UHGV virus genome: UHGV-2199615 | Length of the DNA: 22,709 bases | From: a virus | Reading direction: 5' to 3' (one strand) | Shown: piece by piece, positions 714 through 4,499 of the stretch | Layout of the letters: each line of letters begins with the position of its first letter | Numbering within the stretch: the stretch's first letter is position 1 | Program-made: the position numbers and the translations under genes | Notes under the pieces: model-generated | Told to the model about the DNA's origin: nothing | What the model saw: the letters and a program-made list of their open reading frames with translations, nothing else | Database searches by the model: none

Positions 714-1616
714 TCAGTAATTATGTACTGAAGGAGGTAATTCTTTATTCTTAAGTCTCATCCATGCGGAAAGATTCGTTGGTCCGTCTGGCTCATTGAT
801 ATCAACATCTCGTGTGTGATTGATTAAAACGTCTCTCGCCATATCGATAATACGGGAGAACTCATAACCGCAGTCATGACATCTGCCGGAATAGTTCGAT
901 TGAATTTGTTTTAGCGCCGGATACAGTTCGCGGAATAATGCCTGTGAGCGGTTGGCATAATCCCATAGCCATACAAGGCTGTTTGCTTCTTTTGCAGAAA
1001 GCTCGTTGGTTTTCTTCTCTTGTTTGCCGATGAACTCACCTTCAAGCACTACCCTGTGGATGTACTCTACTGCTTGTGGTATCTGAGATGCATCAAGCTC
1101 TTCAATACTTTCCACATTGAAACGCTGATGAATCATTGCATAAGCTTCTGGGTACATTAGATGCTTTTTGCTGACTAGCATATTTACAGCATCACGAAGC
1201 GGAGTCCTGTCATCAACAGATGTTTTCTTCCGTGCATTTGCTGCCTCTCCCTTTGTCCAGTAGTCATGCAGCACAGTAAAGCATTCTTCCTGGTACTGAA
1301 TCAGTTTATCGCGGATGTCAGCACGAACTTTCTCAGGGTTGATGCTGAACAGCCATCCATTTAACTTCTTCAAAGGAAGGCAGAGTAGCTTACGAAGCTT
1401 ACCATCAGCGGCAACCATGTTCATATGAACACAGTTGAATTTGCTAATCTGCTTCATGAGTTTTGTTTGCTGCGTTGACCAGCTCATTCCGAGGTTTTCA
1501 ACGATTGGCTTCATCGCAACATATGCAACTCCGGCAGCCATGGCGGTGATAATTTGCTGACCGTTGAATGGCACGTAAGAGGTGTTCACTGCTTCTAAAA
1601 TTGCTATACTATTCAT
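714..1616 (-). CDS. ant: Antirepressor Ant (P22 immI-type)
   Basis: ORF 714..1682; start chosen at internal Met ([21 protein letters not shown]...), giving 300 aa, with GGAGA about 10 nt upstream. Sits downstream of an arc-like gene and upstream of tailspike, as in P22 immI. Confidence 0.8.
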
Positions 1617-1697
1617 GTTGGTTTTTCTCCACGGATTTACCGACAACCGAAGCCCTGACTGTTCCAGCAGTTGGGGCTTCACTGTTTTGATTTCTTT
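1617..1697 (+). ncRNA. Candidate sar-like antisense RNA complementary to the ant ribosome-binding site (about 70-80 nt)
   Basis: Plus-strand -10-like TATACT at 1605-1610 (a TTCACT -35-like hexamer lies only 14 nt upstream, so the promoter is weak evidence). Plus-strand hairpin gaagccctgactg(1649-1661)/cagttggggcttc(1668-1680), 13 bp with two G-U pairs, followed by a U-rich tract (actgttttgatttcttt). A transcript would be antisense to the ant SD and start codon. Inferred by analogy with P22 sar. Confidence 0.35.
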
Positions 1698-1848
1698 GCC
1701 GCATCAAGCATCACTTCTGAAAACGTGCGCTTGCCACTGAATACTCTTTCTCTTCTCAATTTTTCGTTCGTGCCAAATGATTCGCCATGAACAAAATTTG
1801 GTCTTAAAATGGTAATCGCAATCTCTTTGACTACTGCATCCAAGCGAA

Positions 1849-2001
1849 TCACACCGTTACCCCCTCTCTCTTCAGGCTGTCTATCAGGCGCTTGATAACC
1901 TCTGAGTTAAACGACCTGCACTCTTCCTTTGCCCTGCTACCGATAGCATCCTTTAACGACTGCGGCATCCTTACCAAAATCTTACTTATTTCTTTCTCCA
2001 T
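1849..2001 (-). CDS. arc: Arc-like ribbon-helix-helix repressor
   Basis: ORF 1849..2037; start chosen at internal Met (MEKEISKILVRMPQSLKDAIGSRAKEECRSFNSEVIKRLIDSLKREGVTV, 50 aa) preceded by GGAGGG. RHH signature (RMP...R..A...RS.NSE) and size similar to P22 Arc (53 aa). Divergent from the mnt-like gene. Confidence 0.7.
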   Translation of the reverse strand: MEKEISKILVRMPQSLKDAIGSRAKEECRSFNSEVIKRLIDSLKREGVTV

Positions 2002-2115
2002 GTTACCCTCCACGCAAACAACTCTTTTCGAATACAAAAGATAGCAAAGTGAGTATATCTAGTCAAAATTTTTTTGCATACACTTTGCTATCAAATTGAA
2101 TACCAAAGGTGTTAT
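2002..2115. promoter_or_regulatory. Divergent immI promoter/operator region (Pant-like leftward, Pmnt-like rightward)
   Basis: 114-bp AT-rich spacer between divergent arc-like and mnt-like genes. Perfect 12-bp inverted repeat gatagcaaagtg (2040-2051) and cactttgctatc (2081-2092), 29 bp apart. Confidence 0.5.
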
Positions 2116-2364
2116 ATGGCAAAGGGTGTGTCAATTTCTCCAACTACGGTAAGAATCCCTGAATCTTTACGCGAGGCTCTTGCTGTCAGAGCATCAAAAA
2201 ATGGTCGCTCTGTTAACTCCGAGATCGTCATGATTTTGCAAGCCGCGATTGATGAAGATAGGTCGCCAAAGTCAGTTGAGTCATTTGCTCAGCAAGAAGC
2301 TGATAAATTCAAAGAGGCGCTACTTGAGACGCTAAAGACCATGTATGCTAAGGATGAAAAATAA
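2116..2364 (+). CDS. mnt: Mnt-like ribbon-helix-helix repressor
   Basis: ORF 2074..2364; start chosen at internal Met (MAKGVSISPTTVRIPESLREALAVRASKNGRSVNSEIVMILQAAI...TLKTMYAKDEK, 82 aa). Resembles P22 Mnt (83 aa) in the N-terminal RHH and C-terminal helix, and is divergent from arc-ant. Confidence 0.7.
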   Translation: MAKGVSISPTTVRIPESLREALAVRASKNGRSVNSEIVMILQAAIDEDRSPKSVESFAQQEADKFKEALLETLKTMYAKDEK

Positions 2365-2900
2365 TGCTGCACACAATTCATTTCTTATGCCCTGTTAACA
2401 CTGCCACTGTTGGGCAACTTCAGAACCACTGTCTCACCGCATTATCTCAAGGCGCAACTGAATTAAATATCCATATATCAAGTCAGGGAGGGGAAACTGC
2501 TGCTGGCTTTACTGCGTATAACTTTCTTAAGTCACTCCCTGTTACCGTTAGAACTCACAACATAAGCAATGTTGAATCCATAGCTAATATCGTTTTCCTG
2601 GCTGGCTCAGAACGTTTCGCAAACCCATTATCAAGATTCCTGTTACATCCTCTATTATGGTGCTTTGCCTCCCCAGCCGCCGACCATGCCAGATTGAGAG
2701 AGTACGGGAAATGCCTCGATAACGATCTTGATCGCTTCGTTGAGACGTTCAATATCGACATCGGAACCCATATTAGGTGGGCATCCCTGATAGCAGACTC
2801 GACCATTTTGGATGCTAACAAGGCTCTTGAGCATGGCATAATTAATTCCATAAAAACTGCAAGGCTGGCATCCAATCAGGCAAACTGGTGGGTTGTTTGA
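2364..2900 (+). CDS. ClpP/S14-fold (Clp-protease-like) protein of unknown role, translationally coupled to mnt
   Basis: ATG at 2364 overlaps the mnt TAA (taATG). 178 aa with HISSQGGETAAGFTAYNFL and NVESIANIVFLAGSERFANPLSRFLLHP, which align by eye with the ClpP motifs NSPGG..AG..IYD and GQAASMGAFLLTAGAKGKR...SRVMIHQP. Candidate Ser, His and Asp positions are present. Confidence 0.6.
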   Translation: MLHTIHFLCPVNTATVGQLQNHCLTALSQGATELNIHISSQGGETAAGFTAYNFLKSLPVTVRTHNISNVESIANIVFLAGSERFANPLSRFLLHPLLWCFASPAADHARLREYGKCLDNDLDRFVETFNIDIGTHIRWASLIADSTILDANKALEHGIINSIKTARLASNQANWWVV

Positions 2901-2925: not shown

Positions 2926-2950
2926 AAAAAACCCACCTGACGGTGGGTTT
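2926..2950 (-). terminator. Intrinsic terminator between convergent genes (strong on minus strand, weak on plus)
   Basis: Plus strand a6-cccacc-tgac-ggtggg-ttt. The minus-strand RNA gets a 6-bp GC stem followed by U6, immediately after the stop of the 149-aa ORF. Confidence 0.6.
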
Positions 2951-3398
2951 AGTCAAACATAGTGTTTCTAAAGTCTCTCGCATACCCTGCTAACACTCTC
3001 ATTCTATTATGATTGTTAGCAGACATGTGAGCTACAGGATGAAAAAGAGCAATCAATGAATACCTGTTCTCATCAAAAAGATTTTGTGCATAAACGAGAG
3101 CGGTATTGGATGTTTTATGCCACTGCAACTTTTGCGGTGTGCTGATATCTGTGCCATTTTTTATTGGCTCAAATTTATTTTCACCAATTGCTAAATGAAG
3201 GTGCATAAGGCCTGCATCTTCAATATCAGGAGGTCGATGATAAGAGGTGTCTCTGCCAAAATAGCTGGGCAACGTTCCCGTAGACTTGTAGATGATAAAA
3301 TCATCTACAAGTGTTTGTTTTAAATCAGGAAACTCAACAAAAACCGGGGAGAAAAAATAGTCAAAACTATCCTGATTATATTCCACGGTTACTTGCAT
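2949..3398 (-). CDS. Putative toxin, YafO-like (ribosome-dependent mRNA interferase family) by recalled motif similarity
   Basis: 149 aa; GAGG SD 7 nt upstream of ATG at 3398; starts 8 nt after the stop of the upstream 188-aa ORF. Segments DFIIYKSTGTLPSYFGRD, LMHLHLAIGEN and QKLQWHKTSNTALVYAQNLFDE resemble E. coli YafO as I recall it (FISYKRDGVLPDIFGRD, VAHIHLANENN, QLRQWSRTNDTAHLVYCQGAFDE). Confidence 0.6.
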   Translation of the reverse strand: MQVTVEYNQDSFDYFFSPVFVEFPDLKQTLVDDFIIYKSTGTLPSYFGRDTSYHRPPDIEDAGLMHLHLAIGENKFEPIKNGTDISTPQKLQWHKTSNTALVYAQNLFDENRYSLIALFHPVAHMSANNHNRMRVLAGYARDFRNTMFD

Positions 3399-3406
3399 GT
3401 TTTACC

Positions 3407-3973
3407 TCAGTGGAAGTTACCAGAGTGAAACACACGAGTCCCGTGCTCAGCAAGCGCACGCAAACCAGCCATATCTACGGAACTATCAAAAACAACCGGA
3501 ACACATGAGCGTTGTTTAATAAGACTATTCAGGTTGGTTACGGCAGATCTGGCATCAGCAACAACGATATAGATATCTCTTGCGATCTCTTTAAAATCAG
3601 CAGAAGCTTCTTTGAATACCGATTTCATTGCCCCTTCAAGTCCTCTCAATTGATGCTCTATCAATCGAGACTTTTCTGGTTCAATGATAGACAACACATT
3701 GTCTACATTCTCATCGGTAGCGTTTGCAAGAACACGATAAGCGTATTTCAGCATTCGAGACAATTCTTTAATCGAAGACACCGCCTCATGAAGCTCATCA
3801 TTAGCCCGTTCACTGCTGAATGAGGATTGATGGTAAGCGTGCTGAACGTTATCAGTAACAACCACCTCACAACTGAACGCAGAAGCTTGCTGTAATAGCA
3901 AACCTATTGCGACTCCAGCTTTGGCAGCGTTCAAGCTAAACATTTCATCAATCCCATTAGTCTCATTGCTCAT
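3407..3973 (-). CDS. Hypothetical protein (188 aa), first gene of a two-gene operon; candidate antitoxin or partner of the YafO-like protein
   Basis: ORF 3407..4003; start chosen at internal Met (MSNETNGIDEMF...) preceded by strong SD AAGGAGG. No motif I recognise, and no obvious RHH/HTH. Stop TGA lies 8 nt before the downstream ATG. Confidence 0.6.
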   Translation of the reverse strand: MSNETNGIDEMFSLNAAKAGVAIGLLLQQASAFSCEVVVTDNVQHAYHQSSFSSERANDELHEAVSSIKELSRMLKYAYRVLANATDENVDNVLSIIEPEKSRLIEHQLRGLEGAMKSVFKEASADFKEIARDIYIVVADARSAVTNLNSLIKQRSCVPVVFDSSVDMAGLRALAEHGTRVFHSGNFH

Positions 3974-4148
3974 ACAAACCTCCTTCTTATCGGAGATTAT
4001 CAATAGCTATGCATCCATTGAATACACGCTATGCGCAATAAGTTTACGTCACGTGATATCATTATGCAACCACCGTTCTATCACCGACTAACTTTACTCC
4101 CACTCCTATACATCATCTGGTATCCTGCGCAAAACTAAGGAGGTTGGT
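3974..4148. promoter_or_regulatory. Divergent promoter region between the 188-aa operon (minus) and the membrane-protein gene (plus)
   Basis: 175-bp AT-rich intergenic region; palindrome TCACGTGA at 4049-4056 is a possible operator; strong SDs on both flanks. Confidence 0.3.
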
Positions 4149-4499
4149 GTGAATGCTCAGTCTGTCATCATGGTTTTCCTTGGGCTGATTGTCGCAAAAC
4201 TATATCCAGACTGGTGGAAAGGGGCATTAGCTACTGTCGCCATCTATTTGCTTTTATCCATCGTTAAGCGATCACTCGCTGAGACCGTAAATCAAGCAAA
4301 ACGTTTCTCATTTAAGAGTTTAATAAACTATGTTACTGGGCTTATTTTTTGCCTTTCAATTCTGATCGCTTCGGCTTTTTTGCCCGTATCAATAGCTAAT
4401 TTTTTTGGCGCACCATATGAGGTAGGTTATCTATTCTCTGTTTCCTGTCTTGCCATTGCTCTTCTTTACCTGTGGACGAGATCAAAGAATAAAAATTAG
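4149..4499 (+). CDS. Small polytopic inner-membrane protein (116 aa); candidate superinfection-exclusion or lysogenic-conversion protein
   Basis: GTG start preceded by TAAGGAGG. Three to four hydrophobic helices (VIMVFLGLIVAKLY, ALATVAIYLLLSIV, LIFCLSILIASAFLPVSIANFF, LFSVSCLAIALLYLW). Convergent with the gp16-like gene, in the position occupied by sieA in P22. Confidence 0.55.
   Translation: MNAQSVIMVFLGLIVAKLYPDWWKGALATVAIYLLLSIVKRSLAETVNQAKRFSFKSLINYVTGLIFCLSILIASAFLPVSIANFFGAPYEVGYLFSVSCLAIALLYLWTRSKNKN

Follow-up and report, generated by a model that had tools for sequence, protein, structure and literature searches.

A prophage gene for a short accessory-type ClpP in the mnt transcription unit of a P22-type immI region

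In Pseudomonas, Listeria, Mycobacterium, and Streptomyces, accessory paralogues of ClpP have begun to be seen as "rheostats" of regulated proteolysis, and they are treated as features of the chromosome. The present analysis concerns a ClpP-like gene carried by a virus, UHGV virus genome UHGV-2199615, of which a stretch of 22,709 nucleotides (nt) was analyzed and is hereafter called the window. The gene, designated clpP (2364..2900, + strand; 178 amino acids, aa), directly follows an mnt-like repressor gene, and its product is interpreted below as a candidate accessory subunit of the host Clp protease. In phage P22, Pmnt is the promoter active in the lysogen, and Mnt there keeps the antirepressor gene ant repressed.

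The closest studied relative of the window protein is PpClpP1 of Pseudomonas plecoglossicida (structure 9UXT), a divergent ClpP with a truncated N-terminus and a Ser-His-Pro site (PMC12900304). Its homotetradecamer has a 42.7 Å pore and shows peptidase activity without any ATPase, and PpClpP1 alone is ~13-fold less active than the canonical paralogue (PMC12900304). The Ser and His are essential and the third residue is dispensable (PMC12900304); this proline is residue 150 when counted on the 9uxt chain and Pro151 in the paper, which leaves the conclusion unaffected. PpClpP1 does not bind ClpX, and together with the canonical ClpP it forms a stable hetero-14-mer that binds ClpX and speeds up ClpX-dependent degradation (PMC12900304). 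The protein was published as a drug target, and phages are nowhere mentioned in that paper (PMC12900304). A second described system is ClpP2 of P. aeruginosa (PA3326), an accessory ClpP tuning ClpXP assembly and phenotype; the ClpP1P2 hetero-peptidases are capped on a single side only and were proposed to "tamp down" degradation (PMC13056064). In the literature searched, nothing relevant was found on phage- or prophage-encoded ClpP, on a ClpP moron, or on Clp in immI, mnt, or P22-like regions.

Fold, active site, and selection of the ClpP-like protein

The clpP product matched the Pfam family CLP_protease (PF00574) with an E-value of 2.2e-11 and 44.4 bits against a gathering score of 20.2. An AlphaFold2 (AF2) model built from 25 family members reached a pLDDT of 91.4 and a pTM of 0.88. 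Among solved structures, 9uxt_A was by far the best match (phmmer E 1.6e-35, residues 3-175), and Foldseek superposed the model on it with template modeling (TM) scores of 0.94/0.91, a root-mean-square deviation of 1.5 Å, and 38% identity. The match of E. coli ClpP to the window protein had an E-value of ~2e-4 and a Foldseek TM score of ~0.82. The Pfam match and the superposition bear out the ClpP fold that the initial annotation, made from the sequence alone, had proposed for the 178-aa product, and the protein is a member of the ClpP/CLP_protease (MEROPS S14) superfamily. The Peptidase_S49 and SDH_sah families, also considered there, gave no profile signal in a Pfam scan at E <= 1, which returned only CLP_protease and one chance match.

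The catalytic residues were compared with those of E. coli ClpP using a reference sequence identical to 1tyf_A. Ser72 and His95 occupy the positions of ClpP Ser97 and His122 in the alignment and do not vary among 31 family members (38-100% identity), and the oxyanion glycine is kept (G43 in the window protein, G68 in E. coli ClpP). At the position of ClpP Asp171, the alignment places Ser146 in the window protein and A/S/E/G/T across the family. The neighboring Asp145, likely the residue taken earlier as the candidate Asp, is not conserved in the family; of the Ser/His/Asp triad suggested initially, the Ser and His therefore stand and the acidic member does not.

Further differences from E. coli ClpP were seen in the same alignment. 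The window protein begins at the equivalent of E. coli ClpP residue ~24-25, so that the pro-peptide, axial loops, and gate are absent, and the AF2 model runs straight into a beta-strand from residue 2. The IGF/LGF pocket Y60/Y62/F82/I90/M92/F112/L114/L189 of E. coli ClpP corresponds to N35/H37/S57/H65/I67/F85/N87/K164, i.e., six of the eight unfoldase-docking residues are polar in the window protein (N35, H37, S57, H65, N87, and K164). While sharing the fold, the catalytic Ser/His, and the oxyanion Gly with E. coli ClpP at ~21% identity, the window protein is not a canonical ClpP, as judged from the aligned Asp, gate, and docking pocket, all three of which it lacks.

PpClpP1 is, by comparison, a full-length homologue of like length (183 versus 178 aa) with the same N-terminal truncation, the catalytic Ser/His, and a non-acidic third position, which is Pro in PpClpP1 and Ser146 in the window protein. 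Every PpClpP1-type feature that sequence and structure can show is present in the window protein. The two are set apart by the C-terminus, since the enterobacterial clade of the family ends in a conserved (N)WWV(T)C motif (residues 174-178; window 2883-2897), whereas the Pseudomonas orthologues end in HWTVSG. Residues 174-177 form a beta-strand in the AF2 model, and the WWV motif might occupy the apical pocket. P. aeruginosa ClpP2 embodies the same concept, a second ClpP that is unable to recruit ClpX, pairs with the housekeeping ring, and tunes proteolysis. It belongs, however, to another ClpP lineage that is not among the top sequence matches of the window protein, and its gene is chromosomal and linked to a biosynthetic cluster.

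The dN/dS ratio (nonsynonymous to synonymous substitution rates) between the window clpP and a Pectobacterium copy was 0.077, which indicates strong purifying selection at the sequence level; dS was saturated in most other clpP pairs, and few further values could therefore be computed.

The mnt-clpP transcription unit and its natural versions without clpP

The features of the locus are as follows.
714..1682, minus strand: ant (antirepressor), left arm of immI (Pfam P22_AR_N 5e-45 and P22_AR_C 2.7e-28; PHROG 245 anti-repressor Ant 3.5e-97).
1849..2037, minus strand: arc-like repressor gene, divergent from mnt (Pfam Arc 9.6e-12; labeled "Arc protein" in phage phiv205-1).
2038..2115, no strand: arc-mnt intergenic control region (promoter scan; inverted repeat; position of the divergent Pant/Pmnt region of P22).
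2116..2364, plus strand: mnt-like repressor gene, 82 aa, with an N-terminal domain of the ribbon-helix-helix (RHH) type and a C-terminal helix (Pfam Arc 9.5e-11; full-length alignment with P22 Mnt).
2349..2353, plus strand: Shine-Dalgarno sequence AAGGA of clpP, within the 3' end of mnt (read from the sequence; 10 nt 5' of the ATG).
2364..2900, plus strand: clpP, short accessory-type ClpP (PpClpP1 type), 178 aa, Ser72/His95 site, no N-terminal gate (Pfam, AF2, phmmer, and Foldseek).
2927..2948, no strand: hairpin AAACCCACC-TGAC-GGTGGGTTT, likely terminator (RNA fold; homology to the hairpin ending P22 mnt).

The gene order and the divergent arc-mnt control region are as in P22, and the alignment of the window Mnt with P22 Mnt runs end to end and includes the C-terminal helix; by these comparisons, the ant/arc/mnt arrangement corresponds to a P22-type immI region. 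The remainder of the window is a late operon of the P22 type, encoding the ejection proteins gp16/gp20/gp7, a head-closure protein, coat, scaffold, portal, and terminase. E. coli ATCC 11775, APEC O1, and further strains share the 1,112 nt from arc to the hairpin at 100% identity, and the window is therefore regarded as an E. coli prophage.

The ATG of clpP (2364-2366) overlaps the TAA stop of mnt (2362-2364) by one base, reading GAA AAA TAATG CTG, and the open reading frame (ORF) 2364..2900 is present as initially described (taATG). The last Mnt codons (AKDEK) carry the ribosome-binding site of clpP. A scan found no terminator-like site between mnt and clpP. The hairpin at 2927-2948 begins 26 nt past the clpP stop, folds with -14.5 kcal/mol (z -3.2) on the plus strand and with -14.9 kcal/mol, followed by U6, on the minus strand; it probably terminates the mnt-clpP unit and, on the opposite strand, a convergent yafO-like gene. 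The mnt transcription unit of P22 ends in this same element, and 22 of 24 nt agree with the end of P22 mnt. In P22, mnt is monocistronic and runs directly into the hairpin, the last codons and stop (AAA AAA ACC ACC TGA, i.e., KKTT and stop) lying inside it, which agrees with the earlier statement that P22 mnt stands alone. In the window, by contrast, the last Mnt codons are replaced, and clpP and a 26-nt spacer precede the hairpin. Given the stop/start overlap with an internal Shine-Dalgarno sequence, the lack of an intervening terminator-like site, and the position of the P22 mnt-ending hairpin after clpP, clpP belongs to the mnt transcription unit, and its placement inside that unit, co-oriented with mnt, is as first proposed. 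A promoter of its own was not evident for clpP from the sequence and the promoter scan; the gene appears to borrow the mnt unit. The 40-nt stretch containing the hairpin also occurs alone in other E. coli genomes (hits H105-H110).

Natural versions of the locus with and without clpP were found for two mnt alleles. E. coli EC416 has the same arc-mnt allele as the window but lacks clpP; the Mnt of EC416 ends in LRNMQENKKPT, and the TGA stop lies in the loop of an identical hairpin that directly ends mnt. The A-tract and left arm of the hairpin thus encode the last Mnt residues in both clpP-less versions (KKTT in P22, at ~3718-3740 of record L147; KKPT in EC416, at 3006-3029 of record L148). Conversely, the clpP-bearing locus L098 encodes an Mnt identical to that of P22 over the first ~54 residues, and its DNA is 96% identical to P22 from arc to approximately mnt codon 65, including the arc-mnt control region. 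The two diverge after ~codon 65, clpP is present in L098, and they rejoin at the hairpin (22 of 24 nt). On the basis of the window/EC416 and L098/P22 pairs, the variable unit consists of the last few Mnt codons (with the ribosome-binding site of clpP), clpP itself, and a short spacer, situated between the mnt body and the mnt terminator. Both pairs agree with the proposal in the initial annotation that clpP is a moron, present or absent in otherwise matching loci. Because versions of the same mnt allele without clpP exist in EC416 and P22, immI works without the gene. A derivation of P22 from the clpP form by one clean microhomology deletion was considered and is unsupported, given divergence at ~codon 65 and rejoining only at the hairpin; the P22/L098 difference is best described, from the aligned sequences, as a replacement or indel that has the mnt body on one side and the hairpin on the other.

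In the arc-mnt intergenic region, the consensus promoter scan found a leftward promoter-like site, TTGACT-17-TATCTT, at 2066..2038. It is flanked by a perfect 12-bp inverted repeat (GATAGCAAAGTG / CACTTTGCTATC, 2040-2051 / 2081-2092) with arms 29 nt apart, which may be candidate Mnt/Arc operators of this immI specificity type. A 57-aa ORF lies between ant and arc (1679..1852, minus strand); phiv205-1 and EC416 list its product as a hypothetical protein, and no gene is annotated there in P22.

Distribution of the family and neighboring genes

The family is a small one: among 1.84 billion cluster representatives, 8 matches were found at E <= 1e-30, 524 at E <= 1e-10, and 2,639 at E <= 1e-3. The gene was present in 128 of 5,426 complete E. 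coli genomes (~2.4%), always on the chromosome, including the type strain ATCC 11775 and APEC O1. No clear foreign-DNA signal was seen in the GC content (0.42-0.46 over mnt-clpP versus 0.38-0.46 nearby). Within the clade of at least 80% identity, from E. coli and Pectobacterium, the clpP start coincides exactly with the end of an Mnt-like ORF in 46 retrieved loci, the departures from this being deletions or truncations. At least six Mnt N-terminal (DNA-binding) types precede clpP in this clade; across all types, the clpP-linked Mnt proteins have the common tail ETLK(T/K)(M/I)Y(A/G)KD(E/D)K, and the junction GATGA(A/T)AAATAATGCTGCAC is kept behind all mnt alleles examined. The cassette occurs in the P22-like phages phiv205-1, EC.P3, and E212. 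The initial annotation had allowed that clpP might be an already characterized component of P22-like immI regions; it is indeed a recurrent part of a subset of them, and no characterization was found in the literature.

In the lambda-like siphophages PhiR12_1/4/5, ant-arc-mnt-clpP lies between the tail genes K and L; in PhiR12_1 (PV340549.1, L002, 3606-5618), the cassette is complete and its neighbors K and L are tail-tip assembly genes, and the immI module appears from this arrangement to have been transplanted into the tail operon in PhiR12_1.

Relatives at 52-75% identity have no RHH gene upstream and stand solo, with the late genes on either side encoded by the other strand. Prophages of Klebsiella and Leclercia carry the gene between the lysis cassette and terminase; in a Rahnella prophage, it adjoins terminase; in Pantoea, it lies between tape-measure and baseplate genes, and in a Proteus prophage near an ERF recombinase. 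The rule that an RHH gene always precedes the family holds only at 80% identity and above (the 46 loci) and fails for all relatives at or below 75%; since these stand without an RHH gene, linkage to mnt is a property of one clade and not of the family. The Pseudomonas orthologues at ~40% identity (the PpClpP1 group) are chromosomal, amid genes for an aldo-keto reductase, a purine permease, and a KGG stress protein, in contrast to the window clpP, which is prophage cargo in a repressor operon. What the phage-borne members seem to have in common, judging from their contexts, is placement in slots typical of accessory genes expressed by prophages.

In Proteus mirabilis ATCC 29906 (L007, 7421-9051), a DUF4411 protein and an M78-peptidase (ImmA/IrrE-like) protein adjoin the clpP copy, a pair that resembles a toxin-antitoxin or prophage-switch module. 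The Klebsiella representative (P0027) is annotated with 238 aa from an upstream start; the family start MIHTVHF lies 52 codons downstream. In GenBank, the phiv205-1 gene (L001, 5765-6301) is labeled "head maturation protease", and E. coli copies in RefSeq are labeled "ATP-dependent Clp protease proteolytic subunit"; both labels are misleading.

Downstream of the hairpin, the window contains a YafO-family toxin-like gene (2949..3398, minus strand; Pfam YafO_toxin 3.4e-22; NCBIfam 79 bits, below the cut-off of 153) and, directly upstream of it, a gene for a 198-aa protein, phrog_8416 (3407..4003, minus strand). The two may form a toxin-antitoxin or defense pair with a non-YafN partner. The same slot holds ORF59 and sieA in P22 and a Panacea-domain protein with a hypothetical protein in EC416. 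A predicted membrane protein of 116 aa with no family match (4149..4499, plus strand) is encoded between these cargo genes and gene 16, near the site of sieA in P22.

Predicted function and competing interpretations

The interpretation towards which we lean slightly is that the clpP product is a prophage-borne accessory ClpP of the PpClpP1 type, which pairs with the host ClpP ring and alters the output of ClpXP and ClpAP in the lysogen. The protein would act as a self-compartmentalizing Ser-His peptidase without an axial gate or a hydrophobic ClpX/ClpA pocket. It would be produced in the lysogen, being co-transcribed with mnt from the lysogenic Pmnt and translated through a Shine-Dalgarno sequence of its own, with the stop/start overlap. 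It would form tetradecamers, including mixed ones composed of one phage ClpP ring and one host ClpP ring; unable to dock ClpX or ClpA itself, it would in the mixed complexes change the rate or specificity of ClpXP and ClpAP proteolysis. The tetradecameric chamber is predicted from the 14-chain homologue 9UXT, and it is by analogy that one would expect a pairing with E. coli ClpP, an effect in one direction or the other, and some advantage for phage or host. Modulation of host Clp proteolysis is preferred over a free-standing new protease because the closest studied relative co-assembles with the housekeeping ClpP.

Several points weigh against this interpretation. Identity to PpClpP1 is only 38-40%, and the mechanism beyond sequence and structure is an analogy from that one homologue, whose partner is a Pseudomonas ClpP, so that pairing with E. 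coli ClpP would be an extrapolation. The loss of the gate and pocket was established at the level of a sequence alignment with ~21% identity to E. coli ClpP, anchored by the catalytic motifs. Production of clpP in lysogens is likewise expected from P22 biology, on account of co-transcription with mnt from the lysogenic Pmnt, and Pmnt of the window was not recognizable on the plus strand in a consensus scan whose number of sites equaled the chance expectation and was uninformative. Finally, an immI-specific role, for which an accessory subunit of host Clp has no need, could lie behind the constant association with mnt in the E. coli/Pectobacterium clade.

Alternatively, the protein could be a stand-alone, unfoldase-independent homo-14-mer with an open pore that degrades unfolded or unstructured polypeptides and serves superinfection exclusion or defense, e.g., against injected phage proteins. 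The PpClpP1 homo-14-mer, with its 42.7 Å pore and measurable activity without an ATPase, offers a precedent, weakened by activity ~13-fold below that of the canonical ClpP when alone (PMC12900304). The gene also occupies slots expected to be expressed in the lysogen, beside a hot spot that holds sieA in P22, the Panacea-domain pair in EC416, and the YafO-like pair in the window; such proximity is weak evidence, however, and clpP is located in the mnt operon and not in the variable cargo slot. The initial annotation had suggested a defense or anti-defense function, and no support for it came from 5,027 PADLOC models (PADLOC-DB 2.0), where no family matched at E <= 0.1, or from the DefensePredictor paper, which contains no Clp term. 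We consider this alternative unlikely.

A safeguard of immI itself, in which the peptidase removes leaky Ant or turns over Arc/Mnt and so locks or times the immI switch, is quite unlikely in our view. It would account for the clade of at least 80% identity, where clpP is always joined to mnt, with ant and arc upstream and at least six mnt alleles, and for the four-gene ant-arc-mnt-clpP cassette having moved as a unit into lambda-like phages. Yet relatives at 52-75% identity stand solo in prophages without an RHH or ant gene in the vicinity, the Pseudomonas orthologues at ~40% identity lie on the chromosome, and the same mnt allele exists without clpP in EC416 and P22. A gate-less ClpP would, moreover, have no evident way to select a folded regulator. 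The solo relatives without an upstream RHH gene thus argue against a function needing Mnt, Arc, or Ant.

As a poison or decoy subunit, the protein would form mixed 14-mers capped on one side only, lowering ClpXP and ClpAP activity and stabilizing antitoxins, RpoS, or phage regulators. The absence of the gate and docking pocket in the alignment fits this idea, as do the singly capped ClpP1P2 complexes of P. aeruginosa, proposed to "tamp down" degradation (PMC13056064). On the other hand, PpClpP1, the sole close relative tested, raised ClpX-dependent degradation in the mixed complex (PMC12900304). The invariant Ser/His and strong purifying selection argue that catalysis matters. This reading is very unlikely.

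The reading as a head maturation (prohead) protease, taken from the GenBank label of the phiv205-1 gene and seconded by matches to PHROG 94 "head maturation protease" (7.3e-21) and NCBIfam Clp_rel_HeadMat (E 5.2e-13), is effectively refuted: the NCBIfam match (NF045542) scores 49.3 bits against a cut-off of 120, clpP is located within immI, ~9 kb away from the coat gene and opposite in strand to the structural operon, the top structural matches among viruses are weaker (TM <=0.86, identity <=25%) and mostly longer fusion proteins, and the closest relative is a bacterial chromosomal ClpP paralogue. ClpP-related prohead proteases (PHROG 94, NF045542) have a distant ClpP-fold similarity to the window protein, which lacks a scaffold/capsid fusion and belongs to a P22-type phage that needs no such protease, as P22-type heads release their scaffold intact. 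Since the head module of the window (portal, scaffold, and coat) includes a scaffolding gene of its own, located between portal and coat, and contains no protease, clpP is an accessory gene, in agreement with the initial view.

Returning to the accessory subunit of host Clp, the analysis shows that a ClpP lineage known only from chromosomes, as a "paralogue", is mobile prophage cargo, wired in E. coli into the lysogeny-maintenance operon. For one and the same mnt allele, naturally occurring junctions that include or lack clpP provide a ready design for a scarless isogenic comparison. If the phage ClpP co-assembles with host ClpP, PpClpP1 would gain an evolutionary context with mobile relatives. 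As a tentative and rather doubtful extension, phages may spread a cassette that reprograms proteolysis, the gate-less ClpP ring made in the lysogen rewiring ClpXP/ClpAP as a form of lysogenic conversion via regulated proteolysis. If this is true, possible effects would include stabler lysogeny, exclusion of phages needing Clp-controlled proteins (lambda O, Mu repressor), and altered stress or virulence regulons (RpoS and others) in extraintestinal pathogenic (ExPEC) and avian pathogenic (APEC) E. coli strains, where clpP is common. Should co-assembly with host ClpP hold, prophages would alter the set of proteins that a cell degrades, a kind of lysogenic conversion not described before.

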